DNA of 64,000 nt, taken from positions 74,408-138,407 of the forward strand of contig CALXCD010000001.1 of NCBI GenBank assembly GCA_944386715.1. Reading direction: 5' to 3'. The stretch's first letter is position 1. Each line of letters begins with the position of its first letter. Below the pieces are notes generated by a model. It did not search any database and was not told the DNA's origin. It saw nothing but the letters and a program-made list of their open reading frames with translations. Shown one piece after another: positions 24,627 through 54,457 of this stretch. Both the position numbers and the translations under genes were made by a program. This stretch comes from an uncultured Clostridia bacterium. Lineage in GTDB: Bacteria; Bacillota; Clostridia; TANB77; CAG-508.

Positions 24627-24760
24627 CTGTTACTAGTTAATGACTTTCACTTATTATTATCCAAAAGTATTGATATATTAATATTTTGCAGGCAAGACCT
24701 GGATTGTTACGCCCAAGCTATGTTTTGCCAAATAATATTAATATAGCAATACTTTTAAAA
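24627..24760 (+). repeat. MITE-like palindromic repeat, copy A (subtype 1)
   Basis: Terminal inverted repeats gtaTTGATATATTAATATT (24667..24685) and AATATTAATATAGCAAtac (24734..24752). Conserved core GCAGGCAAGACCTGGATTGTTACGCCCAAGCTATGTTTTGCC. The left flank cctGTTACTAGTTAATG is shared with copies C and F. Confidence 0.85.
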
Positions 24761-24774
24761 TTTTATTTTTTAAA

Positions 24775-24803
24775 TTGCATTCTTTATTTTTATATGATAT
24801 AGT
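24775..24803 (+). promoter_or_regulatory. Candidate sigma-A promoter for mecA
   Basis: TTGCAT, 17-nt spacer, TATAGT, about 95 nt upstream of the ATG. Confidence 0.4.
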
Positions 24804-24897
24804 ATAAAAAATTAATTACCAAAATTTATCCATTTAAATATAATATTAATAGTAGTATAATATAATTAATAGGTATTAAAGGAGGATTTACATTTAT

Positions 24898-25542
24898 ATG
24901 AAAATTGAAAAACTTACAGAAAACAAAATCCGTATCATTGTAAATCATCAAGATTTAAAAGATAATCACATTGATTTACATACATTAATGACTAAAACAC
25001 TCGAAAATCAATCTCTTTTTTTTGAAATGTTATCCAAAGCAGAACAAGAGGTAGGTTTTTATACAGATGGTTGTCGATTATTAATAGAAGCTTTTTCTTC
25101 TACAGATGATAATTTTGTATTTACCATTACAAAATACGAAAAAACAGAATCCGATTTATCAGATGAAAAAACTTTTTCTCCTAGAAAAAAACTAACTGTA
25201 AAAAGGAAATCCGTCAATTTAAAAAGCACAAATGCTATCTATTGTTTTGAAGAATTTGAAAATTTTTGTAACTTTTGTCAATTTTTAAATCATATACAAC
25301 AATTTGAAAGCAAAAAAATGAGCAAAGATTTTTCTTTATATTGGTACCAAAATAAGTATTATTTAATAATATCTAATATTAACATTACATATCCTAATTT
25401 AAAAAACTTTTATAGTGCTATTTCGGAATTTGGAAAATCTATTCATTTTTCTAATAGTTTTCAAAACAAATTACTCGAATATGGAAAAGTCATTATGCGT
25501 AAAAATGCAATAACTACTGGAATTAAATATTTCTGCAATTAA
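24898..25542 (+). CDS. mecA: Adaptor protein MecA (ClpC adaptor)
   Basis: 214 aa. N-terminus MKIEKLTENKIRIIVNHQDLKDNHIDLHTLM, with length and architecture typical of MecA. RBS AAAGGAGG. Confidence 0.7.
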   Translation: MKIEKLTENKIRIIVNHQDLKDNHIDLHTLMTKTLENQSLFFEMLSKAEQEVGFYTDGCRLLIEAFSSTDDNFVFTITKYEKTESDLSDEKTFSPRKKLTVKRKSVNLKSTNAIYCFEEFENFCNFCQFLNHIQQFESKKMSKDFSLYWYQNKYYLIISNINITYPNLKNFYSAISEFGKSIHFSNSFQNKLLEYGKVIMRKNAITTGIKYFCN

Positions 25543-25552
25543 AATATACATC

Positions 25553-25590
25553 AAAAAATCCACAAATTTTGAATTATTTGTGGATTTTTA
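25553..25590 (+). terminator. Rho-independent terminator of mecA
   Basis: aaaaaatccacaaat-tttgaatt-atttgtggattttt, followed by a T-rich tail. Confidence 0.7.
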
Positions 25591-25664
25591 TTATCTTAGA
25601 CAACAAGGTTCTGAGATACTTAAGCTACAATCTTTAATTCCTATGTCGGGTCATATTCTTATTT

Positions 25665-26678
25665 TTAATAAACATAGTTTTGTGGATTATAAGCCACTCC
25701 ATTTATTCTTACTTCTAAATGTAAATGTGGTCCTGTAGAATTACCTGTAGAACCTACAGCTGCAATTGTTTGTCCTTGGGAAACTGTCGTTCCTGCTGAA
25801 ACATATAATTTACTACAATGTCCATAATAAGTTTGTACATTATTTCCATGAGATATCACAATCATATATCCATAAGAACCTTTATAACCAGAAAAAGTAA
25901 CAGTTCCTGATGCAGCAGCAGCAACAGGTGTCCCTTTTGGTGCTGCTATATCTAATCCTGTATGAGAAGACCTTCTTATACTACTAGATGCTCCAAAGCG
26001 AGAAGTAATCGTTCCTGAAATTGGTTTAATCAAAGAAAATCCTAAATTTACTTTTCCTCTAGAAGTAGTTGTGGCTGTATTTACACTACCAGTAGAAGTA
26101 TATCTTTTAGTAGTAGCTTTAGAAGCTACTTCTACTTTTGGTGGTTCAATACATAATTTTGAAACAATTTCATCTGTAGCTGTAAAATCCTTTACTTCTG
26201 TTTCATACTTTTCCACAATAGAAATAGAATTTATATTTGTACTTTTTTTCTCTTTTAATGTATTTACCACATTCTCTGCTTCTTCAAACTTAGATACATA
26301 AAACTTTTCTTCTTGATTGTCCGTAATTGCATAATAACGATAATAAGGTGTTCCTTGTTCTTTTACTTTTTGAAAAATTTCTTCATCATTAGGAGTAATA
26401 TCTTTTTTTAACAAGCATAATTTATATTCTGGAAGATTAGGTACTTGTACAAAAGCAATATTTTCATTATTATCTTCCCCATTTTCCACATATTCATTAA
26501 TTCTATGCTGTAACTCTGATTTGTTTTCCGTATATCCTACTTGTTCTCCATTAATAAATACACTATATGTTGGCTTATACAAAAATGCAACTAATCCAAT
26601 TATTAAGAAAATTCCTATCATAAAAAGAATAATAAATTTAATTCCTCGTCTGGTATGTACTAGAAACTTTTTTAACAT
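25665..26678 (-). CDS. M23/LytM-family peptidoglycan endopeptidase with an N-terminal TM anchor
   Basis: ORF track 25665..26699. The internal ATG at 26678 has the better RBS (aaaGGAGAGaaagaaATG). Catalytic motifs HTGLDIAAPKGTPV and GPHLHLEV are present. Confidence 0.8.
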   Translation of the reverse strand: MLKKFLVHTRRGIKFIILFMIGIFLIIGLVAFLYKPTYSVFINGEQVGYTENKSELQHRINEYVENGEDNNENIAFVQVPNLPEYKLCLLKKDITPNDEEIFQKVKEQGTPYYRYYAITDNQEEKFYVSKFEEAENVVNTLKEKKSTNINSISIVEKYETEVKDFTATDEIVSKLCIEPPKVEVASKATTKRYTSTGSVNTATTTSRGKVNLGFSLIKPISGTITSRFGASSSIRRSSHTGLDIAAPKGTPVAAAASGTVTFSGYKGSYGYMIVISHGNNVQTYYGHCSKLYVSAGTTVSQGQTIAAVGSTGNSTGPHLHLEVRINGVAYNPQNYVY

Positions 26679-26824
26679 TTCTTTCTCTCCTTTGTACATG
26701 ATATTGTAATCATATTGTAATATTTTCTTTTTTGCAATGATAAGGATTCTCCATTTTCCCTAAGTTATTTTTATTTTTTTTTATTTATCTTGTTTATTTA
26801 CTTTTTTTCTTCCATTTTCAAAAT

Positions 26825-27016
26825 CTGCCAAGAGAGACGTTCCTTTTTGGCAAGTTTCATTTTTGGACTTATTAAAAAGTTGATATATTAATATGAATAG
26901 ACAAAGACCCGGATTGTTACGCCCTAGCTATGTTTTTGTCAGGAATATTAATCTATCAACTTTTTTTAAATAAACTATATCAAAAAACTTGCCAAAAGGG
27001 ACGTCCCTTTTGGCAG
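26825..27016 (+). repeat. Composite nested palindromic element, copy B: a 29-30-nt palindrome, the MITE-like core, and a second 29-30-nt palindrome
   Basis: ctgccaagagagacgttcctttttggcaag (26825..26854). TIRs ttgatatattaatat (26880..26894) and aatattaatctatcaa (26944..26959) around the core AGACCCGGATTGTTACGCCCTAGCTATG. cttgccaaaagggacgtcccttttggcag (26988..27016). Confidence 0.85.
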
Positions 27017-27029
27017 ATTTTCAGTTAAT

Positions 27030-27275
27030 TTATTGTTGTAATTCTGTTTTTACTGTTTCTACTTCTGTCGTAGAAGCTTTTTGAGCTGGTTTATAATAAC
27101 CTTTTGTTTGTGCTATTTTAAAAAGTTCGTATTGAAAACTCTCATCATTATTTCTGATTTGTTGAAAAGTTTGTCTCAATTGCATATTTTCCGCTTCTGA
27201 AATTGCAGTTTGATAAGCAGTTAAATCTGCTTTTACACTTCCTAAAATATCATTTACCATTGTCTTTTCATCCAT
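27030..27275 (-). CDS. CotF-like spore coat protein family member
   Basis: 81 aa. DILGSVKADLTAYQTAISEAENMQLRQTFQQIRNNDESFQYELFKIAQTKGYY resembles the Coat_F domain. Confidence 0.55.
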   Translation of the reverse strand: MDEKTMVNDILGSVKADLTAYQTAISEAENMQLRQTFQQIRNNDESFQYELFKIAQTKGYYKPAQKASTTEVETVKTELQQ

Positions 27276-27289
27276 TTTCTTTTTCCTCC

Positions 27290-27484
27290 TTAATTATTTA
27301 AAAATGTCATTAATTTTTGTTTTGTGTTCAAAGCATCTTGTGCTGATTTTGTAAATAATTGTTTAATTTGTGGATCTACAGCTTGTGAAGAATAAGTGTT
27401 TAATTTTTGATACGCTGTTTCATGTGCTCCTATTAAATGTCTTAAATGTTGTAATTCAACTTGATTTAAATCTGCCATTTTCAT
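27290..27484 (-). CDS. Small helical protein paired with the CotF-like gene
   Basis: 64 aa, 14 nt upstream of 27030..27275 on the same strand. No motif recognised. Confidence 0.4.
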   Translation of the reverse strand: MKMADLNQVELQHLRHLIGAHETAYQKLNTYSSQAVDPQIKQLFTKSAQDALNTKQKLMTFLNN

Positions 27485-27645
27485 CCATCCTTTCTTATTT
27501 TTTTATAGTATTTACATTTTTTATACATTTATACATCACCAAAATATTTTTTATCAATATTTTAGATTTTACTTTTTATGTAAATTGTAGTATAATAGAG
27601 ATGGTTACTAAATAGTCTTTTTTATTTTAAGAAGGGAGTATCATC

Positions 27646-27981
27646 ATGACAAAACCAAATCATTTAAATCCGTACACATTAGAAGAGTTTCCGCTTAATC
27701 CTGAAATAGAATATAACTATCTTCTATCTTACAAAGATAAACCCATCATTGGTATTTTAGAAGTAGCTGAAAAAACTTATCGCATAGATTTTCTTTCTCA
27801 AACTATTTCTTACCGGGATATTTTTGTACTGATAGGAAAAATGGAAGCTGTCATCGAAACCTTCTGCATCGATACTAGTGAGATTCCACGAGTAAAAATG
27901 CGGATGATAAAAAATGTGTTACGGGATTTGGACTATGTGTCTATCGGAAACAATATTTATCGATATAATTTTTATCGGTAA
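27646..27981 (+). CDS. Orphan hypothetical protein with atypical codon usage (four in-frame CGG codons)
   Basis: ORF track, 111 aa, with RBS GAAGGGAG. CGG at 27814, 27901, 27922 and 27976. Also uses CCG, CGC and CGA. Followed by a GC-rich terminator. Confidence 0.45.
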   Translation: MTKPNHLNPYTLEEFPLNPEIEYNYLLSYKDKPIIGILEVAEKTYRIDFLSQTISYRDIFVLIGKMEAVIETFCIDTSEIPRVKMRMIKNVLRDLDYVSIGNNIYRYNFYR

Positions 27982-27996
27982 CTCTTCAGTAACCTT

Positions 27997-28034
27997 AAAC
28001 CGCTCACCCAGAAATCGGGGTGAGCGGTTTTCCT
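27997..28034. terminator. GC-rich bidirectional terminator between 27646..27981 and pcrA
   Basis: aaaccgctcaccc-agaaatc-ggggtgagcggtttt. Confidence 0.75.
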
Positions 28035-28039
28035 TGTCT

Positions 28040-30359
28040 TTATTCAATTATTTCTAATTTTGCAAATTTAGCCATCAATCTTTTATGTCCTACTTTGTCA
28101 AACTGAATATCTACTTTTAAGTCATCTCCTTCTGGTTCCACCATATTAATGGTTCCTTCTCCAAATTTCTTATGGAATACTCGAACTCCTCGTTCATATT
28201 GTGACAAATCCACTTGTGATGCTGCTACTTTTTTCTGCAATCCATTTAAAAAACTTTCTGCCGTTCTAAAGGCAAAACCTTTTGTATTTTGAGATGAACT
28301 AGCAGCTACTCTTGGTTCTTTCTGTTCTACTTGATAAGTTTTAACATTTCCGCCATTTTTGCTTCCATAGGTCCAACTATAAGAAGAATCCTTAAATATT
28401 TGACTCTTATGATTAGTATCTTCTCCAAATACTTCTTCATATCCATCTAATAATTCTTGTGGTATCTCTTTCAAAAATCTAGAAACAGGATTATAACTGG
28501 TAGAACCAAATATGGTTCTTTGCTTACTACATGTCAAAAATAAATTTTCCTTAGCACGTGTAATTCCTACATAACATAAACGTCTTTCTTCTTCTAATTC
28601 TTTTGGTTCCATCATAGATTGATAACCTGGAAAAATCCCTTCTTCCATTCCCACTAAAAATACTACTGGAAACTCTAGTCCCTTTGCACTATGTAATGTC
28701 ATTAATGTAACACTATCTTGTGTCTCTTCCATATTATCTAAATCACTAGATAAAGTAATTCCTTCCAAAAATTCACTTAATGTATTTTCAGCAGATTCTT
28801 CTTCGAACTCTATTGCTACTGTTAAAAATTCCTCTAAGTTAGCTATTCTATTTTCTGCTTCAATTGTATTTTCATTTTCTAGTGCTTGCATATAACCTGT
28901 TTTCTTCAAAGTAGCAGTAACTAGTTCTGATATTTTTAGCTGCTCTTTTTTTACTTTTAATTCTTCAATTGCATTAATGAATTCTCTAGAATTTAAAAAT
29001 ACTCTATTTAAAGCATATTCATCTGCATGTTTAATAATTTCATACATAGATTTTCCAATTTCATTAGACAATTGTTCTATTTTATCTAAACTAGTTTTTC
29101 CAATTCCACGTTTAGGTTCATTAATAATTCTTTTTAAACTTAAATTATCTGAGCTATTTTGAATTAATCTTAAATAGGCAATTAAGTCTTTAATTTCTTT
29201 TCTTTCATAGAACTTTAGTCCACCTATAATTTTATAAGGAATATTTTCTCTTCTCAAAATGTCTTCAATTGCTCTAGATTGTGTATTCATACGGTATAGT
29301 ACAGCAAAATCAGAATAAGAATAATATTCTTCCCTTTTTAGATGCTCTATTTGACTAACAAGATAAGAAGCCTCATCATATTCATTATCTGCTAAATAAA
29401 CCTTTGGTAAATTTCCTTCTTCATTTTGTGTCCATAATTCTTTTTTATATTTTACCTCATTATTTTTAATAACACTGTTGGCTGCTTTTAATATATTTCC
29501 TGTACAACGATAATTTTGCTCCAATTTAATAATTTTAGTCCCTGGAAAATCTCTTTCAAAATTCAAAATATTAGAAATATCTGCTCCGCCTAAAAGAATA
29601 AATTCCTTGGTCATTATCTCCTACTACTGTAATATTTCCATTTTTAGAAGCCAGCAAAGTAATTAAAGTAAATTGAGATTTATTAGTATCTTGGTATTCA
29701 TCTACTAAAACATATTTAAATTTATTAGCATAATATTCTAATACATCTGGATTTTCCATCAATATTTTAATAGTATCATTAATAATGTCATCAAAATCAA
29801 TGGCATTGTTTTCTTTTAATCTTTTTTGATATAATTGATAAACGCTTGCAATTTTTTCTTTTCTAAAATCTCCTCTTGCTCTTATTTCATATTGATTTGG
29901 CTCCAACATCTCATTTTTAGCATTACTAATTTCAGATAACACACTCCTATCTGTAAGTAACTTATCATCTATAGATAGCTCCTTTAAACATGCTTTTACT
30001 AAAGTCCTTTGGTCAGATGTATCAAATATGATAAAAGAAGAATCAAAACCAATTCTATCAATAAATCTTCTTAAGATACGTACACAAATAGAATGAAATG
30101 TACCCATCCAAATATCCTTAGCATCATCTCCTACTAAATTTGCAATTCTTTCTTTCATTTCATTAGCGGCTTTATTCGTAAAAGTAATTGCTAAAATATC
30201 CCAAGGATGTACCTGTTTTTCTCCTATTAAATAAGCTATTTTATGGGTTAATACTTTTGTTTTTCCACTCCCTGCTCCTGCAATTACTAAACATGGTCCT
30301 TCTGTATTAACAACTGCTTCATATTGTTTATCATTTAATCCTTTTAATAAATCTTCCAT
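28040..30359 (-). CDS. pcrA: ATP-dependent DNA helicase PcrA (UvrD family). The reading frame is interrupted by one extra nt at in-frame CGG 29588..29586.
   Basis: Pieces 29571..30359 (Walker A AGAGSGKTKVLTHKIAYL; ..VVGDNDQGIYSFR) and 28040..29614. The +1 reading gives GADISNILNFERDFPGTKIIKLEQNYRCT. The 0 frame stops 4 codons later. Merged length is 2320 nt, which is 1 mod 3. Confidence 0.9.
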
Positions 30360-30930: not shown

Positions 30931-30986
30931 AATATAACCATCCTTTGTTTTTTAGTTATCATAAATCATATTTGCTATTTTGTCAA

Positions 30987-32868: not shown

Positions 32869-32953
32869 AAATATTCTCCTTCTTTCTTAAGCTTGAATTA
32901 TTATACTATATTTTTTCTGTTTTTACAAGATATTTTTTCATGCCAGTTCTTAT

Positions 32954-33090
32954 CTTGTTACTAGCTAATGGTTTTCACTTATTATTATCCAAAAGTATTG
33001 ATATATTAATATTTTGCAGGCAAGACCCGGATTGTTACGCTCTAACTATGTTTTGCCAAATAATATTAATATATCAATACTTTTGACATT
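32954..33090 (+). repeat. MITE-like palindromic repeat, copy C (subtype 1)
   Basis: Near-identical to copy A: cttGTTACTAGCTAATGgttttcacttattattatccaaaaGTATTGATATATTAATATTTTGCAGGCAAGACCCGGATTGTTACGCTCTAACTATGTTTTGCCAAATAATATTAATATATCAATAC. Confidence 0.9.
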
Positions 33091-33151
33091 TTATTTTTAT
33101 TCATTAACTATTAACCTTATCTTACCCATTTTTCTATAAATTTTTAAAGAC

Positions 33152-34262: not shown

Positions 34263-36209
34263 TTAAATTTTTTGTAAATCTATCAAATGGTAAGAAATAT
34301 TAAATGCATTCAATATTTCTTTTTCTCTTTGAGTACAGGTAAATAAAATAATTTGTCTATCCCTATATTTATTAGCTAAATAATTTAAAATATTTTTTAA
34401 TCTTTGTGTATCATAATAAGCAAAAGCTTCATCTAAAATAATTGGCATTTTTTCTTCAGATAATTCTTCTACCATAGATAATCTTAAAGAAAGATACAAT
34501 TGGTCAATTGTTCCTACACTTAATTTAGAAACTGGCTCATAATTTCCATTTTCCAATTCCACAATCAATCCTTCCTCATTATGAAAAACAACATTTGTAT
34601 ATTTTCCGTTTGTAATATGTGTTATGGTTTCTGACAAATTCTGTGTAAACTTAGGGGTAACTGATGTTCTCATTTTTTCATAAGCCGAATTTAAAACTTC
34701 TTTTGCTAAATTCATACTTTGTTCTAGGTTTTTAAGAGTTGACATTTCTTCTTTATGGTTAACTAATTCTTCTTCTATTTTTGCTAAATTATCTAACTTA
34801 GGTTCTACATTTTGTTTATCTATTTCTAAAGTATGTAATTCTATTTTTTCATGATTTATTTCATTTTGTATATTTTCAATTTGCAAATTTATCTTTTCTA
34901 ATGTCATATTTTCCTCTAATTTATTTTTTTCAATTTTATTTAAATATTTATTTTTTATTTTTTCTTTTTCTAAATTCATTTTTAAATTAAAATTATTTTT
35001 TAATTTATTTATTTCTTTCTCTAATTCTGAATTATTTTTTTCTAATAAAATAATTTGACTATTTATATTATTCATTTCTAAATTTATTTTTTCTTCTTCT
35101 ATTTTTTTATTTTTTTCTAATTTTTTTATTTTATTTTTTTTATTTTTTAAAAATAATAATGAAAAAATTAAATACATTGGGAGAGTAAGAAGAAAAATAT
35201 ATTTAAAAATATTATTTTTTATAAAAATAAATTGTAAAATACTAATAATTAATAATAAAATAAATACATAAATTATTTTTTTATTTATTTTATTTTTTAT
35301 TTTCTTATTTTTTTCTAAATTATTTTCTAAAATATTTTTATTGTTATTTTTTATTTTTTCAATTTCATTTTTTAATTGATTTATTTTTTCTAAATTTTCA
35401 TTTTTTATATTTTCTTGTAATTTTATTTTTTCATTTTCAATTTTCTCATTTTCAATTAATAATTTTAATTCTTTTAAATAATTATTTTCGTTTTCTAATT
35501 TTTCTATTTGTGTATTTAATTCTATTTTATTTTCTTCCATTTGATATTTTAAATCTTCATATCTTCCTAATTCTTGTTTTTCATTTTCTAATTTTTCAAT
35601 TTCATCCATCAATTTGTTAATTGGCTTTTCCCTAGACCTTTCTGTTCCAATTTCATTCAATTGTCTCCTATTAATTCTATCTATTGCTCTTTGATAAGAA
35701 ACGTTATCTTCACCCGTTCCAACTAAATTAGCAATTTTTTGTACCAACATATTTTGTTCCGTTTTTTCAAGTTTTACTTCTTGTTGATTAACAACTAATG
35801 TAGATAAAAATAAAGATTCATCTACTTTGGTTTGCTCATAAAAAAATTCATTTCCTTTGTTTTTATCAATATTAAATAGTTTTGAAATATCTTCTTTATT
35901 TTCATTAAAAATCTTAGGATTCTTCTTTTTGAAATCTCTAAAAACTTCAAAACTTTCTCCATTATCCAATTCATAAACAACTTTTCCAGAAAACTCTTCT
36001 TCTCCCCATGGTTTATATTTTTCAAAATCAGAATATTCTTTTCCCTTTTTATTTTTAGATATTCCATAAAAAGAATTCACAATAAAATGAAAAATAGTAG
36101 ATTTACCAGATTCATTTTTTCCTTCCACTATATTAATTCCATTTTCTAATTCTAATTCTTTATCTTTCAATTTTCCATAAGAATTAATTTTTAATTGTTT
36201 TATCTTCAC
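34263..36209 (-). CDS. SbcC/YhaN-like AAA ATPase with a long K/N/E-rich coiled coil interrupted by a hydrophobic hairpin
   Basis: 648 aa. Walker A GKNESGKST. C-terminal signature LSVGTIDQLYLSLRL and Walker B PIILDEAFAYYD. Central IIYVFILLLIISILQFIFI..IFLLTLPMYLIFSLLFL. Confidence 0.75.
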   Translation of the reverse strand: MKIKQLKINSYGKLKDKELELENGINIVEGKNESGKSTIFHFIVNSFYGISKNKKGKEYSDFEKYKPWGEEEFSGKVVYELDNGESFEVFRDFKKKNPKIFNENKEDISKLFNIDKNKGNEFFYEQTKVDESLFLSTLVVNQQEVKLEKTEQNMLVQKIANLVGTGEDNVSYQRAIDRINRRQLNEIGTERSREKPINKLMDEIEKLENEKQELGRYEDLKYQMEENKIELNTQIEKLENENNYLKELKLLIENEKIENEKIKLQENIKNENLEKINQLKNEIEKIKNNNKNILENNLEKNKKIKNKINKKIIYVFILLLIISILQFIFIKNNIFKYIFLLTLPMYLIFSLLFLKNKKNKIKKLEKNKKIEEEKINLEMNNINSQIILLEKNNSELEKEINKLKNNFNLKMNLEKEKIKNKYLNKIEKNKLEENMTLEKINLQIENIQNEINHEKIELHTLEIDKQNVEPKLDNLAKIEEELVNHKEEMSTLKNLEQSMNLAKEVLNSAYEKMRTSVTPKFTQNLSETITHITNGKYTNVVFHNEEGLIVELENGNYEPVSKLSVGTIDQLYLSLRLSMVEELSEEKMPIILDEAFAYYDTQRLKNILNYLANKYRDRQIILFTCTQREKEILNAFNISYHLIDLQKI

Positions 36210-37306: not shown

Positions 37307-37376
37307 GACTCTCTCCTTTTCTTTTTATTTTCCTATTTTATTATACTTTCTATTTTTTTGCAATAGTTCCAGGTTT

Positions 37377-37432
37377 GCATTGGTTCCAGGTTTGAATGCC
37401 AACTTTTTGGCGTTCAAACCTGGAACCAATGC
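37377..37432. repeat. Long near-perfect hairpin repeat, copy 1 (also the likely terminator of the coupling-protein gene)
   Basis: gcattggttccaggtttgaatgccaa-ctttt-tggcgttcaaacctggaaccaatgc. The arm is shared with 56626..56681. A partial duplication, gttccaggtttg, lies just upstream. Confidence 0.8.
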
Positions 37433-37446
37433 AAAAAACGTAAAAA

Positions 37447-37475
37447 CTGCCAAAAAGGAACGTTCCCTTTGGCAG
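37447..37475. repeat. Solo copy of the 29-nt GCCAAAAAGG-ACGT-CCTTTTTGGC-type palindrome
   Basis: ctgccaaaaaggaacgttccctttggcag. Same family as the outer arms of the composite elements at 26.8 and 47.6 kb. Confidence 0.8.
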
Positions 37476-41463: not shown

Positions 41464-41565
41464 TTAACATCCTCCCTAAAATCAGGTACTCCTATTATAT
41501 CACAAAAATCAAAAAAATCCATAGCTTTTATGGATTTTTCTCCAACCCTCATAAAAAAACAAGAA

Positions 41566-41649
41566 GTACTTTATATTAATATTTGCAATCAAAGACCCGG
41601 ATTATTACACCCCAGCTATATTTTTGATGAAAATATTAATATAAAGCAC
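41566..41649 (+). repeat. MITE-like palindromic repeat, copy D (minimal form)
   Basis: gtactttatattaatatt ... core CAAAGACCCGGATTATTACACCCCAGCTATATTTTTG ... aatattaatataaagcac. Confidence 0.8.
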
Positions 41650-41685
41650 TTTCTAATCTTCTTATTAGATTATAATGATAAAATC

Positions 41686-44558: not shown

Positions 44559-45578
44559 ATGGCAGATAATATAGAAGAATCAATAGAAAGATTGCCCTTA
44601 ACCTCAGATTATGTATTTAAAAGAATCTTTGGGCAAGAAGAAAATAAAAGTGCATTAATAGATTTTTTGGAAGGTATTTTAAAAATAAAAATCGAAAATT
44701 TACAAATCAACAATCCAGAAATTCCAAAAGATTTTTATGATAGCAAATATGGTGTATTAGATTTAAAAGTTACTTTAGACAATAAGATAATCGTTAATGT
44801 AGAAATGCAAGTTCAAAATCAATATAATATAGAGCAAAGAAGTACTTTTTACATGGCTAGTACCTATACACAACAAATCGGAGAAGGAGAAGGATACGAA
44901 AATTGTAAAAAAGTAGTAGTAATCAATATTTTAAATTATAAATATTATAAAAGAAATAGCTATCATTCAGTTGCAAGAATGAAATTTGAACCAAGTGATA
45001 AAACAGCCAAAATAAATTTGGGATATAAAAAAGAAGATCTTTATGCAACAAAATATTTAGAAATGCACATGATAGAATTACCTAAATTTAAAGAAAAAAA
45101 TCCAGAAATAGGAACAAAATTAGAACAGTGGCTTTGGTTATTTATAGGGGGTGAAGAAAAAGTGAAAAAAGCAAGTAAAGTTAATAAAGAAGTAGAAAGA
45201 ATTAATAAAAAATTGGCATCTATGAGCTTAAGTCAAGAAGAAAGAAATAATTATGAATTTCGCTTAAAAGCTATACGAGATGAAATAAACTTCAAATCTA
45301 ATGCACAACGTCAAATAGAAGAAATAGCCAAAGGAAAAAAAGAACTTGCCCAAGGACAAGAAGAACTTGCCCAAGGACAAGAAGAACTTGCTAAGGAAAA
45401 AAGAGAAATAACCAAAGGGAAAGAAGAGCTACTAAAAGAGCAAGAAAAAATAAAACAAGAAAGAATGAATGTAGTTAAAAAATTATTAGAAAAAAATTTT
45501 TCAATTCAAGAAATTGTAGAAATAACTGGCATATCAAAAAATGAAATAAAAAAATTTTTCCAAGAAAATGCAGAATAA
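44559..45578 (+). CDS. Rpn/YhgA-like PD-(D/E)XK nuclease family protein (putative transposase family)
   Basis: 339 aa. LTSDYVFKRIFGQEENKSALIDFLEGIL, VLDLKVTLDNKIIVNVEMQ, LEMHMIELPKF. K/E-rich C-terminal tail. Strong RBS AAGGAGGAG. Confidence 0.75.
   Translation: MADNIEESIERLPLTSDYVFKRIFGQEENKSALIDFLEGILKIKIENLQINNPEIPKDFYDSKYGVLDLKVTLDNKIIVNVEMQVQNQYNIEQRSTFYMASTYTQQIGEGEGYENCKKVVVINILNYKYYKRNSYHSVARMKFEPSDKTAKINLGYKKEDLYATKYLEMHMIELPKFKEKNPEIGTKLEQWLWLFIGGEEKVKKASKVNKEVERINKKLASMSLSQEERNNYEFRLKAIRDEINFKSNAQRQIEEIAKGKKELAQGQEELAQGQEELAKEKREITKGKEELLKEQEKIKQERMNVVKKLLEKNFSIQEIVEITGISKNEIKKFFQENAE
45342..45395 (+). repeat. In-frame 21-nt tandem repeat (about 2.5 copies) inside the Rpn-like gene
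   Basis: gaacttgcccaaggacaagaa x2, then gaacttgctaagg. Encodes ELAQGQE-ELAQGQE-ELAKE. Confidence 0.85.
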
Positions 45579-45986: not shown

Positions 45987-47642
45987 ATGATGAGTATCAA
46001 AGAGTTAGAAACAAAAAAAGAAAATACAACTGAAAACTTAGAAAAGACAAAAAATAATACGATAAAAAACAGCATCATTGCTACTAAAGAAATAGAAAAT
46101 GATGAACAAAATAATCCATCTACAACTAATGAACCAAATAAAAAACAAACATCCTATACACCAAATGAATTTCACACTATTTCACCACAAAAAACCACAC
46201 TAAGCACATTAGGAATCTTAGGAATAATCGGTATCATCCTTATTATTATTGTAGCAATATGTTTTTCTATATTTACTATTTTTAACAATACCAATGAAAA
46301 TATAGTATCTGGAATTTCTATTAAAGGTATTGACGTTTCTGGACTTAGTAAAATACAAGCTAAAGAAAAACTAGAAAGTTATATACAAGAAAACTTACCA
46401 GAAAACATCCTATTAAAACATAATGATTTTGAAACTTCTATCCCACTATCTTCTATCGAAGTTAATTTTGATATAGATGGAGCAATTGAGCAAGCACTAC
46501 AAATTGGAAAAAACGGAAATATGCTACAAAATAGTTTTGAAGCACTTAAAACTATGCTTTACCCTATAGATATTGAACCAACTTTTTCTATGAATGAACA
46601 ACTTTTAATAGATGCATTAAATGACATATCCACGAAATTGCCAGATACCGTAATAGAAAGTAGCTATTACATAGAAAATAATAACTTAATTTTAACTAGT
46701 GGAAAAGAAGGAAATGTAGTAAATATCAATCAAATGGTATCTTATATAAAAAACGGTATCATGAATTTAACTTTAAAAAATAGAACTTTAGATATTGCCA
46801 CCTCTATAAAACAACCATCCAAAATTAATATAGAAAAAATTTATGAAGAAATTCACAAAGAAGCAAAAGATGCTTATTATACACAAAATCCTTTTTCTGT
46901 TTATCCAAGTGAAAATGGTATGGATTTTGCTATTTCACTAGAAGAAGCAACTCAAATGTTAGAAGAAGAAAAAGAAGAATATACAATTCCTTTAAAAATA
47001 TTATACCCAAAAGTTACTACAAATATGATTGGTACAGAAGCTTTTCCAGACCTACTTTCTAGCTTTTCTACAAATTATAATGCTAGAGATACAGATAGAA
47101 CAACCAACTTAAAATTAGCAGCAAACAAAATTAACGGAACTGTTTTAATGCCAGGAGAAACCTTTTCCTATAACCAAGTGGTAGGAGCTAGAACAATTGC
47201 AGCAGGATATAAAGAAGCACCAATCTACGTGCAAGGACAGGTTGTAGATGGACTAGGTGGCGGAATTTGTCAAATCACTTCAACTTTATATAATGCTGTT
47301 CTTTATGCTAATTTAGAAATTGTTGAGAGAAGCAATCATCAATTTGTACCATCTTATGTTACAGCAAGTCGTGATGCTACAGTAGTTTATGGTTCTATTG
47401 ATTTCAAATTTAAAAATAACAGAAATTATCCTATTAAACTAATTTGCTCTGTAGCAAACGGAGTTGCAAGTTTTCAAATATTTGGATTGAAAACAGATAA
47501 TGAATATGAAGTTGTCATCTCTTCTTATGAAACAGGTAGAACTTCTAATGCTATTTATTCTGAAGCTTATAAGATTTTAAAACAAAATGGACAAGTAGTT
47601 GATAAGCAATTGTTATCTAGAGATGTCTATAAAAGACATTAA
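45987..47642 (+). CDS. VanW-family protein (N-terminal TM anchor, PG-binding-like region, VanW domain)
   Basis: 551 aa. RTTNLKLAANKINGTVLMPGETFSYNQVVG..GYKEAPIY..GGGICQITSTLYNAVLYANLEIVERSNH. Confidence 0.85.
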   Translation: MMSIKELETKKENTTENLEKTKNNTIKNSIIATKEIENDEQNNPSTTNEPNKKQTSYTPNEFHTISPQKTTLSTLGILGIIGIILIIIVAICFSIFTIFNNTNENIVSGISIKGIDVSGLSKIQAKEKLESYIQENLPENILLKHNDFETSIPLSSIEVNFDIDGAIEQALQIGKNGNMLQNSFEALKTMLYPIDIEPTFSMNEQLLIDALNDISTKLPDTVIESSYYIENNNLILTSGKEGNVVNINQMVSYIKNGIMNLTLKNRTLDIATSIKQPSKINIEKIYEEIHKEAKDAYYTQNPFSVYPSENGMDFAISLEEATQMLEEEKEEYTIPLKILYPKVTTNMIGTEAFPDLLSSFSTNYNARDTDRTTNLKLAANKINGTVLMPGETFSYNQVVGARTIAAGYKEAPIYVQGQVVDGLGGGICQITSTLYNAVLYANLEIVERSNHQFVPSYVTASRDATVVYGSIDFKFKNNRNYPIKLICSVANGVASFQIFGLKTDNEYEVVISSYETGRTSNAIYSEAYKILKQNGQVVDKQLLSRDVYKRH

Positions 47643-47840
47643 CTTGGCAAGAGGGACGTTCCTTTTTGGCAGATGTTGCATAATGTTTTATTTAGAAAAG
47701 TGGATATATTAATATTTTTGACAAAAACAGAGCTGGGGCATAACAATCCGGGTCTTTGTCTACAAATATTAATATATCCACTTTTTATGATTAAAATAAA
47801 TCTATAAAATTTGCCAAAAAGGAACGTCCCTCTTGCCAAG
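47643..47840 (-). repeat. Composite nested palindromic element, copy E. It fills the entire convergent intergenic gap.
   Basis: cttggcaagagggacgttcctttttggcag (47643..47672). TIRs tggatatattaatatt (47701..47716) and aaatattaatatatcca (47764..47780) around GGGGCATAACAATCCGGGTCT, which is the core in reverse orientation. ttgccaaaaaggaacgtccctcttgccaag (47811..47840). Confidence 0.85.
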
Positions 47841-47844
47841 TTAA

Positions 47845-49218
47845 TTACATCGTTAACGTTCCATTTGGTGTATCTTTAATTACTAAAATATCCTCTTCCC
47901 TACCATTTTCACAATTAATATATACTAAGAACTCACTATCATCCACTTTTCCTTTAAACTCATAACAATATATTTCTGATTGCCATTCTGTTGGAATCAC
48001 AGCCAAACCTTCACTTTCAATTTGCAAATCTTTATTCAACGTATTTTTTGCTTCCTCTTTACTAATCTTAATTTCAGGAAGATTTCTCTCTTCATGATTA
48101 TTCAAATATCCAGAAGTTTCTATTCCCAGCACTTCTCCATTGTCTAATGCCACTTTTACTTTAATCAAATCAGGATACATGATAACTCCATCTTGAGAAT
48201 AAGCATAATTAATAGTAACAATTCCCTCTTGTTTTAAAAAGTAAGTTTCTTTCATGTTTGGAAATCCTTTACCCGTCAAAAACTGTTTACCTTTTTCGTT
48301 TGCTTCTTCTTGTGATATTGCTTCTATCCCTACCTCTCTATTAGAATTATAATACACAACATGTCCACCTTTTTGGGAAATAGATATATTAGAACTTTGG
48401 TCTTGATTATTTTTTAATGAGAAATCATAAACTGGTATCGTAGCATTTTCAGACAAACCTAAACTTGAAATTTCTTTAATTTGGTCCTCTCCTATAAATT
48501 GTTTTGCAATTTGTGTTGCTTGCTCTTCTGAAATATCCTCACCTGTTAATCCCTTTTTATCTTGTTTTGTTAAATGTTCTGAAAATGCACCATCATAAAT
48601 AAGTCCAGAATATTCATGAAAATTTTCTTCTAAATTGCTAAAGCTCTCTTTTGAAATATTATCTACTTGCTGAGCAAATGCTACCGTTCCTTTTTTCGTT
48701 AATTCTCCCCACTCAAATCTTCCTGAATTTAAATCTTCTGATAATTGATTTAATGTGTTTTCCAAATCTTGACTATAGCCGTGCAAATCTTTCAAATTTT
48801 TCAAATCTTCTTGTGATAAACTTTCATTATAAATGTTTTTTCTAGATAAAGAATAACTATAATCACTTACTTGATTTAAAAATCTTTCTGTATTTTCTAA
48901 TTCCTGACTTTCTATTGGCAATCTAGACAAATATGCTTGAGCAAGATTTGCTTCTCTCCAAACATTTGTCAAAGTTTCTGCTCCATGTTCAGGTGTCGTA
49001 GAAATTAAAGATTTAGCAAGATATGTTTCTACATTTTGCACATAATTCACCAATTCATAAAAAGCCATATTGTAGGAATTCTCAGATGCTTGCTTATACT
49101 CTCTTTGCTTTTGATATAATATAATTCCAAGTATAGCTACAACAACTAATAAAACACAAATGACACTTAACATATGTCCTTTTTTTAATCTTTCTTTCCA
49201 ATCCATTAATTTATTCAT
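47845..49218 (-). CDS. ypeB: Germination protein YpeB
   Basis: 457 aa with a TM anchor and C-terminal PepSY-like repeats, located directly downstream of sleB as in Bacillus and Clostridium. Confidence 0.8.
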   Translation of the reverse strand: MNKLMDWKERLKKGHMLSVICVLLVVVAILGIILYQKQREYKQASENSYNMAFYELVNYVQNVETYLAKSLISTTPEHGAETLTNVWREANLAQAYLSRLPIESQELENTERFLNQVSDYSYSLSRKNIYNESLSQEDLKNLKDLHGYSQDLENTLNQLSEDLNSGRFEWGELTKKGTVAFAQQVDNISKESFSNLEENFHEYSGLIYDGAFSEHLTKQDKKGLTGEDISEEQATQIAKQFIGEDQIKEISSLGLSENATIPVYDFSLKNNQDQSSNISISQKGGHVVYYNSNREVGIEAISQEEANEKGKQFLTGKGFPNMKETYFLKQEGIVTINYAYSQDGVIMYPDLIKVKVALDNGEVLGIETSGYLNNHEERNLPEIKISKEEAKNTLNKDLQIESEGLAVIPTEWQSEIYCYEFKGKVDDSEFLVYINCENGREEDILVIKDTPNGTLTM

Positions 49219-49230
49219 TTTGACCTCTCC

Positions 49231-49707
49231 TTATTTACAAAATCTATGTTTTCCTATTGTTTTTACTAATGGTCTAGACCAAATCCACTTATTCGTAGCA
49301 GTAGATGGATTAAAATAATAAATACATCCTCCTGTTGGATCCCATCCATTCATCGCATCTTGTGCTGCCTTATAAACTGTAGACCCCTCATCTATTGGTG
49401 CGTTAATTTGACCATCACTAACAGCCGTAAATGCTCCTGGTTGATAAATAACACCTGCGATAGTATTTGGAAATTGAGAACTTTTCACTCTATTTAAAAT
49501 AACCGCTCCCACTGCAACTTGACCTTCATAAGGTTCTCCTCTAGCCTCTCCATTAATTGCTCTTGCCATTAACTGAATATCAGATGTTCCAGAAGATGCC
49601 GCATAACTAATATTTTCTGTACCAATGCCACTTCCTAAAACAATTAGAAAAACAACTGTTATCACAAATATAATACATAATCCAATTGCTTTTATTATTT
49701 TTTTCAA
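49231..49707 (-). CDS. sleB: Spore cortex-lytic enzyme SleB-type cell wall hydrolase
   Basis: 158 aa. ARAINGEARGEPYEGQVAVGAVILNRVKSSQFPNTIAGVIYQPGAFTAV (Hydrolase_2 pattern). Confidence 0.85.
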   Translation of the reverse strand: MKKIIKAIGLCIIFVITVVFLIVLGSGIGTENISYAASSGTSDIQLMARAINGEARGEPYEGQVAVGAVILNRVKSSQFPNTIAGVIYQPGAFTAVSDGQINAPIDEGSTVYKAAQDAMNGWDPTGGCIYYFNPSTATNKWIWSRPLVKTIGKHRFCK

Positions 49708-49833
49708 AATATCACCTTTTTCTTTTTAATTTTAACTTAATTTTATTTTTTACTTTTTTTTCAAAATTTATTCCATTTTTTGAAATTTTCATATATTTGT
49801 GATAAAATAAGCAAAAAAATAGGAGAATAGAAT

Positions 49834-50958: not shown

Positions 50959-50990
50959 GGAGAAGATTTCATAATCTTCTCCTTATTCTT
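50957..50990 (+). terminator. Rho-independent terminator of the glycosyltransferase gene
   Basis: aaggagaagatt-tcat-aatcttctcctt followed by a T-rich tail. Overlaps the stop codon. Confidence 0.7.
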
Positions 50991-51112
50991 ATTGTCTTAG
51001 ACAACAAGGTTCATTTTATCTTATATCAACATAATTTTGTGTTTTTCCTAAATTTATTAATTAATCTATCGTTACCTTTTTCTATCTAGTTTCTTATTAT
51101 ATAAAGAGGTGA

Positions 51113-51319
51113 ATGTATATGTGTACTAATTCTTTATCTGGATGTAATTTACTAGGATTATCTAGCACTCTAGCTATCACATTAAGCCAAAATCTATCTA
51201 CTGAAGAAATTGGAATTCTAGGAGCATTTTTTACCTCTCTTGGAGATAATCTTGCACTACTTGCCATTACAAAATCTTCGGATAACCAAGATAATTGTCA
51301 ATTTGAAAACTTTTCTTAA
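51113..51319 (+). CDS. Small hypothetical protein
   Basis: ORF track, 68 aa, with RBS AAAGAGGTGA. No family recognised. Confidence 0.35.
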
Positions 51320-51915
51320 AGTTCTCTTCTTCCCTCTAATGCTTTTGTTAAAGTAATTTCATCTGTATACTCTAAATCTCCTCCTACTGGTATTCCATGA
51401 GCTATTCTAGTCACCTTAATTCCAAGAGGTTTTATCAATTTAGACAAATACATTGCTGTGGCTTCACCTTCTACCCTTGGATTTGTTGCTAAAATTACTT
51501 CTTTTACTTTTCCATCCATTAGTCTTGCTAACAATTCTTTGATTTTTATATCATCTGGTCCAATTCCATTCATAGGAGAAATAGAACCATGTAAAACATG
51601 ATATACTCCTTTAAATTCATGCGTTTTTTCCATCGCAATAATATCTCTAACATCTTCTACCACACAAATAGATGTCTCGTCTCTTCTAGGATTACTACAA
51701 ATACTACAAGGGTCAGTATCTGAAATATTATAGCATTTACTACAATACTTTAAATTTTTCTTTGCATTAACAATAGAAGAAATAAATTCGTTTGTTTCTT
51801 CTTCTGATGCATTTAAAATATAAAAAGCTAGTCTTGCAGCAGTTTTATGTCCAATACTTGGTAATCTTTCAAAACTTTCTATTAACTTTTCAATCGATGG
51901 TGAATACAATGACAT
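51316..51915 (-). CDS. recR: Recombination protein RecR
   Basis: 199 aa. [17 protein letters not shown] HhH. C4 zinc finger [16 protein letters not shown]. Toprim region. Confidence 0.95.
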
Positions 51916-52036
51916 TTCTAACTTCCTCCACTATTTATCCATATGGAATATATTTTTTATGCAATAGAAATTTCAAAGAATTTTCCTATCACATAAAAAG
52001 GCATCCTTTTTACTTATTTGAATGCCTTTATTTGCT

Positions 52037-52381
52037 TTACATCAATCCTGGTAAATTAAATTTTCCCATTTGTTCTGCTTGTGCTTGGTCTACTTTTCTT
52101 AAAGCCTCATTTACACAAGTTAAAATTAAATCTTCTAGCATTTCAACATCTTCTGGGTCTACTACTTCTTTATTTAATTTAATCTCTTTTAACAATTTTT
52201 GTCCAGAAACTTTAACACTAACAGCACCTCCACCTGCTGTTGCATCAAATTCTTTACTTGCTAATTCTTCTTGTGATTTTTCCATATCTGCTTGCATTTT
52301 TTTAGCTTCTTTCATTAAACTATTAATATTTAGGCCTCCAAATCCTCCCATTCCTCCTGGGAAACCTCCTCTTTTTGCCAT
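52037..52381 (-). CDS. ybaB: YbaB/EbfC-family nucleoid-associated protein
   Basis: 114 aa, between dnaX and recR. MKEAKKMQADMEKSQEEL pattern. Confidence 0.9.
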   Translation of the reverse strand: MAKRGGFPGGMGGFGGLNINSLMKEAKKMQADMEKSQEELASKEFDATAGGGAVSVKVSGQKLLKEIKLNKEVVDPEDVEMLEDLILTCVNEALRKVDQAQAEQMGKFNLPGLM

Positions 52382-52408
52382 GTTACATTCTCCTTTCTTG
52401 AATTTTTT

Positions 52409-54073
52409 TTAATCTATTACTTGAAAAGGAATACCAGATTCCTTTGCTAAATTTTGAATATCTTCTTCTTGCGTTTTTGGTATTTTAGGCTGAGTATCTG
52501 CCATATATTTAATATGCATTTCCTTTCCACAAGCCATAGATACCAAGTTAGAAATTTCTCTCATATTTTCTTGTTTTTCTAAAACTGTTTTTCCAAAAGA
52601 TGTCAAACCATTTGGAAATTGTATTCCTACCGTCATATCATTTAATTCAACAGCATGTGTATGCATCAAATTAGTATATAAAACAATTTTTCCACTTTGC
52701 TTCAACTGGTTAACAATTTGTGGCCAATATTCTTCCACTTTATTAGAAAACTTTTTAGTAGCAGTCGAAACTTTCGTATTATGATTAGATGTATTTACTT
52801 GATTCGTAGGACTAACGGAAGTAGCAGTCACTCTAACAGCTGTATTAGGTAAGGAATTATCTTGAGAAGATATATTCGTTGTTTTCATAGATTTCAAATA
52901 TTGTTCTATTTTTTGCACTCTTTCTTCTAAATTTTTATTCTCCCCTACTGTATCATTTGTGCTAATAAATTGTTTTTCTACTTTCGTATTTTCTTGTCTT
53001 TGACAACAAAGCTTTATGATTCCAGCTTGGAACATAATCACCTTTTGTGTAGACCATTTTAGATTATTTTCTAATTCAGATAATTCATAAATAATAGAAA
53101 TAAGTTTTTCTTTTGAAACTTTTTGTGATAATTCTTGTATTTTTTCAAGTTCTTCTGGACTATATAAATCTAATTTTCCTGCTGTTTGAAATACCAAAAC
53201 ATCTTTTACATATTTTATCAATTCCCACAAAAAATTAACAATATCTTTTCCTTCATTCAAAACTTCATCTATACTTTTTAATGCTTTTTCTACATCATAT
53301 TGTATGATAGCTTCTGTTAAATGATGAATATATGTTATTTTTGGAATTCCTACTAAATCTTTAATTTTGTCCTCATCTATTTTATTCTCTCCATCTTGAA
53401 TACATCTTTCTAAAATAGATAAAGCATCTCTCATAGCACCTTCTGACAAGACCGCAATAATCTGCATTGCCCCTGCTGTAATTTCAATATTACTTTCCTC
53501 ACATACAATCTTTAATCTTTTAATAATATCTTCATTAGAAATTCTCTTAAAATCAAATCTTTGACATCTAGAAAGAATTGTCGCTGGTAATTTTTGTGGT
53601 TCCGTAGTTGCTAAAATAAATTTAACATGTTCAGGTGGTTCTTCTAAAGTTTTTAACAAAGCATTAAAAGCCCCTGTAGAAAGCATATGAACCTCGTCTA
53701 TAATATAAACTCTAAATTTTGCCTTTGTTGGTAAAAAATTCACTTCTTCACGAATGCTTCTAATATCTTCCACACTATTATTAGAAGCAGCATCCATTTC
53801 CACAATATCTGTTAAAGAGCCAGAAATTGCTCCCCTACAAATTTCACACTCATTACATGGTTCTCCGTCTTTTGGATTTAAACAATTAATTGCCCTTGCT
53901 AATATTTTAGCTGCTGAAGTTTTCCCAGTTCCTCTTCCTCCATTGAATAAATAAGCATGTCCCACTCTATTTGCAATAATTTGATTTTTTAATGTTCTAG
54001 TAATATGTTCTTGACCTACCATTTCAGAGAAACATAAAGGTCTAAATTTTCTATAAAGAGCTGTGTACCCCAT
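52409..54073 (-). CDS. dnaX: DNA polymerase III subunit gamma/tau
   Basis: 554 aa. YRKFRPLCFSEMVGQEHI, GGRGTGKTSAAKILARAINC, zinc module CNECEIC, DEVHMLS. Confidence 0.95.
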   Translation of the reverse strand: MGYTALYRKFRPLCFSEMVGQEHITRTLKNQIIANRVGHAYLFNGGRGTGKTSAAKILARAINCLNPKDGEPCNECEICRGAISGSLTDIVEMDAASNNSVEDIRSIREEVNFLPTKAKFRVYIIDEVHMLSTGAFNALLKTLEEPPEHVKFILATTEPQKLPATILSRCQRFDFKRISNEDIIKRLKIVCEESNIEITAGAMQIIAVLSEGAMRDALSILERCIQDGENKIDEDKIKDLVGIPKITYIHHLTEAIIQYDVEKALKSIDEVLNEGKDIVNFLWELIKYVKDVLVFQTAGKLDLYSPEELEKIQELSQKVSKEKLISIIYELSELENNLKWSTQKVIMFQAGIIKLCCQRQENTKVEKQFISTNDTVGENKNLEERVQKIEQYLKSMKTTNISSQDNSLPNTAVRVTATSVSPTNQVNTSNHNTKVSTATKKFSNKVEEYWPQIVNQLKQSGKIVLYTNLMHTHAVELNDMTVGIQFPNGLTSFGKTVLEKQENMREISNLVSMACGKEMHIKYMADTQPKIPKTQEEDIQNLAKESGIPFQVID

Positions 54074-54117
54074 CCTTTCACATCCTTTATATAAGATACA
54101 AAAAGTATGAATTTTAA

Positions 54118-54236
54118 TCTTTCTATGGAAAGCATCTCACATAAAGATAACTACTTATTGCTGCTTCCTTCCGGACCTGACAAGGTTCATAGGTCTTTAT
54201 TGAAATACTCTCCATACAAAGATTAACTCTCATACC
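54118..54236 (-). ncRNA. ffs: Signal recognition particle RNA (small, 4.5S-like form)
   Basis: The minus strand contains the conserved domain IV sequence GUCAGGUCCGGAAGGAAGCAGC (54181..54160). It is closed by the long helix ucuuuguauggagag.../...cuuuccauagaaaga (54222..54118). Located immediately upstream of dnaX, as in Bacillus subtilis. The exact ends are uncertain. Confidence 0.8.
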
Positions 54237-54242
54237 TTTTGT

Positions 54243-54271
54243 ATTATATAATGATTTTAAAAAATTAGCAA
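54243..54271 (-). promoter_or_regulatory. Sigma-A-type promoter for SRP RNA
   Basis: Minus strand: TTGCTA, 17-nt spacer, TATAAT (cTTGCTAattttttaaaatcattaTATAATac). Confidence 0.55.
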
Positions 54272-54334
54272 GTATCTTTTTGAATTTTATGAAGTAATTA
54301 TTACTCTTTAATGGTTTCCACCTACTACTAAAAA

Positions 54335-54457
54335 GTATTGATATATTAATATTATTTGGCAAAACATATCTGGGGTATAACAATCCGGGTCTTGCCTGTA
54401 AAATATTAATATATCAATACTTTTAGTATTCATTTTCAAATCATGAACTAGTAACAA
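54335..54457 (-). repeat. MITE-like palindromic repeat, copy F (subtype 1, reverse orientation)
   Basis: gtattgatatattaatatt ... GGGGTATAACAATCCGGGTCTTGCCTG ... aatattaatatatcaatac, plus the flank aactagtaacaa (reverse complement of the TTGTTACTAGTT flank of copies A and C). Confidence 0.85.

Follow-up and report, generated by a model that had tools for sequence, protein, structure and literature searches.

What are the six short palindromes that lie scattered along a stretch of 64,000 nucleotides from an uncultured Clostridia bacterium (contig CALXCD010000001.1; the whole stretch is called the window here), and by what means did they reach their places? The window is bacterial, densely coding and ~29% GC, and it codes for proteins of sporulation and germination (YpeB, a SleB-like hydrolase and SASP). 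The original prediction, which was made from this stretch alone, described the repeats (copies A to F) as MITE-like elements (MITE: miniature inverted-repeat transposable element). It is likely, with a probability of roughly 0.78, that they are members of one family of non-autonomous DNA transposons, or MITEs, in uncultured spore-forming low-GC gut Clostridia. This family appears not to have been described before. The kind of element, the bacterial MITE, is well known, and current concepts are left unchanged.

All six copies are real. The 20-nt core AGACCCGGATTGTTACGCCC, searched with up to three mismatches, is found six times in the window, starting at 24695, 26905, 33023 and 41593 on the plus strand and at 47736 and 54373 on the minus strand. 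There was no match to the core pattern in 100 shuffled versions of the window. A covariance model trained on 75 members of the family recovers these six copies only, with scores of 83-109 bits; apart from the reverse strands of the copies themselves, the next matches in the window are unrelated hairpins scoring no more than 26 bits. The six places that had been predicted are thereby confirmed. Every copy lies between genes, as had also been noted. Each copy is predicted to fold into an outer AT stem (~20 bp) and an inner stem (8-9 bp) separated by an internal loop, with ~24 nt in the apical loop. The fold z-scores range from -5.4 to -9.1.

The comparison with wide flanks indicated that longer elements surround this AT-stemmed hairpin of ~90 nt, which forms no more than their centre. 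In copies A, C and F the true ends lie further out, as inverted repeats of the GTTACTAG...CTAGTAAC type, and elements of this form are 156-159 bp long. The AT-only sequences that had been taken for terminal inverted repeats are internal stems, and the ends of the A, C and F type are GTTAC...GTAAC. The 40-nt flank with TTGTTACTAG, which had been noticed in the same three copies, is real; it corresponds to the true left arm and terminus.

Copy C (32957-33115, plus strand) is an intact MITE of 159 bp. Its ends, GTTACTAGCTAATG...CATTAACTATTAAC, are complementary to each other at 12 of 14 positions, and its hairpin is at 32990-33085 with the core block at 33022-33054. It is flanked by a duplication of 8 bp, CTTATCTT, which is identical on both sides (32949-32956 on the left and 33116-33123 on the right; 8/8 match). 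Copy F (54300-54455, minus strand; repeat family D4) is a MITE of 156 bp from the same subfamily as A and C, with the left end GTTACTAGTTCATG and a diverged right end, CATTAAAGAGTAAT. Its insertion point is one base past the stop codon of the gene at 54465-55232, upstream of the signal recognition particle (SRP) RNA. The flanking duplication of copy F consists of AATTATTT on the gene side (54456-54463, read on the minus strand) and AATTACTT on the SRP RNA side (54292-54299), which match at 7 of 8 positions; together with the adjacent 7 nt it can alternatively be read as a 15-nt direct repeat, GAGTAATAATTAYTT. Copy A (24629-24771, plus strand) belongs to the GTTACTAG-arm subfamily and begins with the left end GTTACTAGTTAATG at 24629. 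Its hairpin lies at ~24665-24754 and its core block at 24694-24726, and it is 93% identical to copy C across 143 nt (repeat family D1). The right terminal arm of copy A, ~17 nt, is gone, and there is no target-site duplication.

The other three copies have no GTTAC...GTAAC ends. Copy B (26875-26965, plus strand) belongs to the GACAAAGA inner-stem subfamily and consists of a central hairpin whose core starts at 26904. Copy D (41563-41652, plus strand) consists of the bare hairpin, with CTTTATATTAATATT as its stem and ATCAAAGA as its inner stem. Copy E (47695-47785, minus strand) is a central hairpin with a GTGGATATATTAATATT stem. Copies B and E are found inside palindromes of ~200 bp, which are made by the repeat TGCCAAGAGGGACGTTCCTTTTTGGCA on both sides.

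A scan with a degenerate core was made over one genome per species, and wide flanks were fetched for the matches (loci with L numbers in the following). At least ~75 true core matches were obtained. Among the matches listed, all of these are in metagenome-assembled genomes (MAGs) of 25-30% GC labelled uncultured Clostridia or Clostridium, and the sample names of the MAGs with family matches suggest a gut origin. Nine further matches in GC-rich genomes are due to chance. The number of copies varies greatly among related genomes: one MAG has at least 67 distinct copies in the 241 kb of its fetched loci, and the 64-kb window has six. In a large metagenome collection, the family was seen in only 21 stretches. 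The scan of a viral contig collection gave no match, BLAST searches of plasmids and phages gave AT-rich chance matches only, and a literature search by sequence and keywords returned nothing specific to the element. At the gathering thresholds of Rfam, only SRP RNA and tRNA-Arg match the window; a permissive Rfam search with copies A and B yielded only weak matches far below threshold (for copy A, mir-266 with 23.7 bits against 80).

Complete copies in the family are 141-162 bp long, and their GC fraction is 0.22-0.36. Their terminal inverted repeats, GTTAC(A/T).../...GTAAC, have 0-4 mismatches across 14-16 nt. Target-site duplications of 8 bp occur in the family, copies C and F of the window included: among ~29 copies with GTTAC...GTAAC ends, 15 show a perfect duplication and ~8 show one that matches at 7 of 8 positions. 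By our own estimate, a perfect match of 8 nt is expected by chance at ~3e-4 per site in AT-rich DNA. The duplicated sequences are varied and AT-rich, and their length is exactly 8 bp. In the richest genome, the majority of copies are complete elements with flanking duplications. The ends themselves come in several forms. The usual form in BRZ_PK__bin13 is 141 bp long with the ends GTTACAATTCAGCAGG...CCTGAATTGTAAC, and a second form in this MAG, of ~158 bp, starts with GTTACTATTCACAGC.... The Lapin MAG has GTTACAGGATAATGG...CCATTATCCTGTAAC as ends, and BRZ_RS__bin5, the nearest relative of the window, has GTTACTAGTTAATG...CATTAACTAGTAAC.

No coding frame is conserved in the core when the three frames are read by eye. 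The orientation of copies relative to the neighbouring genes is not biased (++, 27; --, 19; -+ or divergent, 18; +- or convergent, 15), and divergent promoter regions hold copies as often as convergent gaps. Inverted repeats, duplications of fixed length, a high and variable copy number, the non-coding nature and the intergenic scatter together agree with the usual definition of a MITE (PMC6382973), and in this sense the 'MITE-like' label of the original prediction proved to be right.

Incomplete and rearranged forms are also present. Many copies in other MAGs are bare hairpins like copy D. The copies in L021, L022 and L034 of BRZ_RS__bin5, like copies B and E, have no GTTAC arms and are bracketed by an inverted pair of a second palindrome, which is described below. 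Two copies, in L012 (minus strand) and L108, are chimeric; their halves come from different subfamilies, with the crossover in the core. Arm swaps and centre flips are found at low frequency within the MITE subfamilies. In BRZ_PM__bin58, bare hairpins form head-to-tail arrays of two to three units with a period of 96 bp (L068, 2055-2342; also L013, L017, L054 and L070). At ~2130-2358 of L054 (minus strand), a copy ends abruptly after ...GTTATGCCC and is followed by ~200 nt of unrelated, GC-richer sequence. This sequence has its own hairpin, CCCACCAGCTAGTC...GACTAACTGGTGGG, and no open reading frame (ORF); it may be another small element or an RNA inserted into the core. Contigs commonly end inside or beside copies, as seen in L093, L095 and the short metagenome contigs L102, L103, L109 and L116.

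Divergence between subfamilies is much greater in the arms and ends than in the centre. Two blocks of the loop, AAGACCCGGATTGT and AGCTATGTTTT, are common to the subfamilies. Because part of the core was fixed in the search pattern, ~40 further copies that do not follow the pattern were gathered with the covariance model as a control, and both blocks are still conserved in them. The 6-8 nt at the apex are variable (TACRCCC, GGCGCCC, GTCACCC and others) and often contain CpG-like positions. The conserved apical core of the original prediction is thus retained as far as its blocks are concerned, and the GTTAC inside it varies among relatives. The core was also tried as a third copy of the terminus. 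This was rejected, as many copies have GTGGC or GTGTC in place of the GTTAC inside the core.

The stems of the centre covary strongly. Across 75 copies, 97.5% of stem cells are paired, compared with 38-44% in slid controls, and changes on both sides are seen in 14 of the 28 stem pairs. The compensatory differences reported for the inner stem of the six copies are seen across the family. Nearly all compensation is of the Watson-Crick type, and G.U intermediates are almost nil. The exception is one invariant G.T (G.U) pair of the inner stem, which lies inside the conserved core. The covariation had been taken to argue for selection on structure, either in RNA or in single-stranded DNA; it is strong, and it does not point specifically to RNA. 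Compensation that is almost purely Watson-Crick, in copies that favour neither strand with respect to transcription, fits a palindrome at the DNA level better than a strand-specific RNA. Both features point to a hairpin, a cruciform, or arms copied from each other.

A mechanism consistent with these observations can be proposed for the MITE family. The elements are inserted between genes in either orientation, with duplication of 8 bp of AT-rich target; this much is shown by the copies themselves. The 8-bp staggered cut suggests a DDE-type transposase, which would be supplied in trans by an autonomous element. The central hairpin would be a module needed in cis, either as a protein-binding or architectural site or as a hairpin in single-stranded or cruciform DNA. 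Since every subfamily keeps the centre while its arms and stems diverge in step, the centre may be required in cis or favoured at the level of the element. After insertion, copies decay, as in the case of the lost end of copy A, recombine at the shared core and duplicate in tandem. Now and then the centre is flipped, which would happen inside the perfect stem, either by recombination or by a switch of template. The host seems to have taken over some copies that consist of the hairpin only, and copy E is the clearest candidate, most plausibly as an orientation-independent structural element such as a terminator or insulator.

The history of copy E can be followed across species. Locus L022 of BRZ_RS__bin5 is syntenic with 37.5-49.2 kb of the window, and the flanking proteins are 87-99% identical. 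Copy E is found at the same site in three species, represented by the window, L022 and L114, the last from a third and more distant relative. In the window and in L022, this site is the gap between the stop codons of a VanW-like gene and ypeB. Between the window and L022, the flanking genes are ~79% identical at third codon positions; the hairpins differ at 2 of ~92 positions, once an inversion of the centre is undone. The comparison with L114 showed five differences in 83 nt (counted by eye), all at variable positions of the loop, with the stems unchanged. Overall, copy E is 94-98% identical across species.

Compared with 7255-7300 of L022, the 46 bp at the centre of copy E (47718-47763) are exactly inverted, and the stems, spacers and flanking genes are collinear. 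L022 and L114 share the orientation opposite to that of the window. No inversion was found within the species: ten conspecific contigs from other samples were fetched, and all nine that span the copy show the orientation of the window. This fixed orientation indicates that the flip was an evolutionary event, with no visible switch. Core-versus-arm flips resembling that of copy E were observed in L047 and L067. In L114 (OESA01003822.1), synteny is lost within the right stem of the copy-E orthologue, beyond which another gene is found, so that the element marks a rearrangement breakpoint. That copy E has been conserved over a long time, whichever way it is oriented, suggests exaptation of some copies by the host. 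Judged from its sequence context, the most plausible role of copy E would be that of a structural element between convergent genes.

Several points weigh against the interpretation as MITEs. Copies B, D and E, together with many copies in other MAGs, have neither GTTAC ends nor a recognisable duplication. The cis-acting role of the centre is something that we infer from its conservation only. The strong conservation of copy E could partly reflect gene conversion instead of selection, against which its locus-specific GTGGAT stem argues. The comparison for an empty site gave a mixed answer: copy D is absent from the matching site in the sister species, where ~133 nt of the window correspond to 15 nt in L022, but these 15 nt differ and the site is not a clean one. 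For copies with duplications, empty sites were sought at L059 beside prfA and in L005 versus L060, and the gene order differs at both.

The search for a transposase partner also weighs on this side. There was no transposase, and no ORF with several copies within one genome, among 551 ORFs of at least 150 aa from the genome-collection loci and the window. When GTTAC...GTAAC pairs with duplications were sought at distances of up to 6 kb, no longer element emerged in the fetched loci; as these loci are mostly no longer than 8 kb and MAGs usually lose copies of insertion sequences (IS), the absence of the partner is weak evidence. Inverted-repeat pairs seeded with 10 nt, lying 0.6-4 kb apart and flanked by a perfect 8-bp duplication, were only pairs of MITE copies, metagenome loci included. 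Among the IS families with 8-bp duplications, IS1595, ISL3, IS6, IS66 and IS256, we know of none with GTTAC ends. The partner may therefore be undescribed.

The earlier statement that the window contains no transposase is correct for classical transposases. One PDDEXK_2 gene (Rpn-like 'PD-(D/E)XK nuclease family transposase') is present at 44559-45578 on the plus strand and codes for a C-terminal HTH_7 domain, and nothing links it to the element. L022 lacks the gene at the syntenic site, together with ~410 nt of upstream sequence, and the gene shows no inverted-repeat ends. With no such ends and with only one other homologue among the ORFs of ~0.6 Mb of loci, this gene is unsupported as the mobiliser. 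Another homologue lies at 5702-6625 of L035, and a degenerate hairpin copy directly follows it.

A tentative alternative gives the centre a more independent role. In that case, the hairpin would be a functional module, a structure-specific recognition site for a protein, which several mobile backbones picked up independently and which the host then domesticated at certain sites. One of these would be the VanW/ypeB gap, where the module is almost invariant across three species and would work in either orientation. The protein may be a host factor that binds DNA or RNA, or else a transposase from a so far undescribed IS family whose ends begin with GTTAC. We regard this as possible and rather unlikely.

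It is improbable that the repeats are primarily a structured RNA in many copies, that is, a small RNA or a cis-regulatory hairpin with the loop as its binding or seed site. The hairpins are very stable and their stems covary, as expected for such an RNA, and the invariant G.U pair of the inner stem works on one strand only; the compensation, however, contains very few G.U intermediates, and the inverted repeats with target-site duplications show transposition. Three bare copies in other MAGs occupy tight gaps between co-directional genes, yet the family as a whole shows no orientation bias. Likewise, copy E is conserved well beyond synonymous sites in three species, but its centre is inverted in one of them with nothing else changed. 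The Rfam searches found no such RNA, and no convincing conserved promoter is present. The one candidate promoter, on the antisense strand (TTGNCA, a spacer of 17-18 nt and a weak -10, AACAAT), was rejected, as its -35 is part of the inner stem, which varies, and most subfamilies have lost this hexamer.

Very improbable is a scenario in which the hairpins are structural elements selected by the host, such as bidirectional terminators, insulators or protein-binding cruciforms, that spread mainly by recombination and duplication, with transposition as a side story of one subfamily. The position of copy E exactly between convergent genes in three species, with both orientations tolerated, would be explained well, and the tandem arrays as in L068 (96-bp period), the many copies with neither GTTAC arms nor duplications and the association with a second, terminator-like palindrome family would also fit. 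Convergent sites are, however, no more frequent than divergent promoter regions. The AT-only stems are not followed by a proper T-tract, and a terminator scan gives no call for the hairpin itself. The predominance of complete elements with duplications in the richest genome and the very different copy numbers of related genomes also argue against it.

It is hardly credible that the repeats are REP/REPIN-type elements mobilised by a RAYT (a Y1 transposase of the IS200/IS605 kind) or invertons driven by an invertase. Their palindromic, intergenic and multi-copy nature, the conserved motif in the hairpin and the centre in both orientations relative to its flanks would fit. However, REP/REPIN insertion leaves the target unduplicated, and duplications of 8 bp are frequent in this family. 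Among the ORFs of the fetched loci and the window, neither a Y1 transposase nor an invertase gene turned up close to a copy. The invertible segment is only ~46 bp long and has one orientation in all nine spanning conspecific contigs. A Correia/RUP-type (IS630-like) MITE was rejected, as the duplications are 8 bp of varied sequence and not TA.

The second palindrome family has the consensus GCCAAAAAGGAACGTCCCTCTTGGC and five sites in the window. Two sites flank copy B: one at 26826-26852, with the sequence TGCCAAGAGAGACGTTCCTTTTTGGCA and forming an inverted pair (repeat families D5 and D20), and one at 26990-27015, where the terminator scan also calls a terminator-like hairpin on both strands. 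Two flank copy E. The left one, at 47645-47671 (inverted repeat I10), begins 3 nt past the stop codon of the VanW-like gene (45987-47642), and 6 nt separate the end of the right one, at 47812-47838, from the ypeB stop codon (gene at 47845-49218, minus strand). The fifth, at 37448-37474, stands alone. Outside the window, the palindrome is present in L020, L049, L057, L060, L061, L066, L078 and L114 of other MAGs. It is often located right behind stop codons, sometimes as inverted pairs around the main hairpin, and shows compensating changes between species. It looks like a separate family, REP-like or terminator-like.

A third repeat is a near-perfect palindrome of 64 nt with a 29-bp stem (GGTTTGCATTGGTTCCAGGTTTGAATGCCAA...) and ~42% GC, compared with 29% GC of the genome. 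It is located at 37372-37435 and 56621-56684 of the window, downstream of genes in both cases, and at ~4564-4625 of L082, which comes from another MAG, and has no match in Rfam. Two further regions of the window are repetitive. At 34263-36209 (minus strand), and especially at 34950-35650, the GC fraction is 0.19 and short T-rich direct repeats occur within an ORF of 648 aa, which probably codes for a repetitive Lys/Glu/Asn-rich protein. At 3204-17159 (minus strand), adjacent giant ORFs of 1582, 1304 and 1645 aa show similarity at a spacing of ~9.05-9.2 kb (D12, D16 and D18). They are probably paralogous surface proteins.

The family is of interest for several reasons. The combination of GTTAC ends and an 8-bp duplication is a search key for a possibly undescribed family of transposases. 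Variable ends, an invariant centre and one copy under apparent purifying selection make it a tractable case of MITE exaptation. The element provides recombination sites that rearrange the genomes of its hosts, and it is a marker for a gut Clostridia lineage about which little is known. It also fragments metagenome assemblies of these genomes and gives rise to spurious ORFs.

Among known systems, the Correia elements of Neisseria (CREE/NEMIS) and ERIC, RUP and BOX of enterobacteria and pneumococci are intergenic, imperfect palindromes of ~100-160 bp, which can form a single long hairpin and are modular or mosaic. Correia and RUP elements duplicate TA, and no defined duplication is known for BOX and ERIC. 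The long form of Correia has a functional IHF-binding site in its centre, and some elements of this type have come to serve the host as terminators, promoters or RNA processing sites. The family described here has no known sequence similarity to any of them, and their hosts are Proteobacteria or streptococci, not Clostridia.

REP/REPIN sequences are similar to the present family as short intergenic palindromes, often in inverted pairs, and the second palindrome family resembles them more than the main element does. REPINs make no duplication and their hairpin is recognised by a Y1 transposase, unlike the element, which has inverted repeats and 8-bp duplications. Flip/flop hairpins, such as the terminal repeats of parvoviruses, and short invertons also share an asymmetric loop, two orientations and perfect inverted repeats with it. 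In contrast to these, the flip seen here is rare, evolutionary and fixed within the species, and belongs to no replication cycle or regulated switch.

Bacterial MITEs are AT-rich elements of ~50-600 bp with inverted repeats and target-site duplications, which encode no transposase and are moved in trans by co-resident IS (PMC6382973). MITEAba12 of Acinetobacter generates a duplication of 9 bp (PMC6382973). The present element differs from it in the 8-bp duplication and in having no known parent IS. It also differs from MITEs such as MITEAba12 in that the centre, and not the ends, is most conserved, and the ends and arms of its subfamilies share only GTTAC. In its small size, AT-richness, inverted repeats, duplication of fixed length, non-coding nature, many copies, AT-rich intergenic targets and variable copy number, the family resembles bacterial MITEs.

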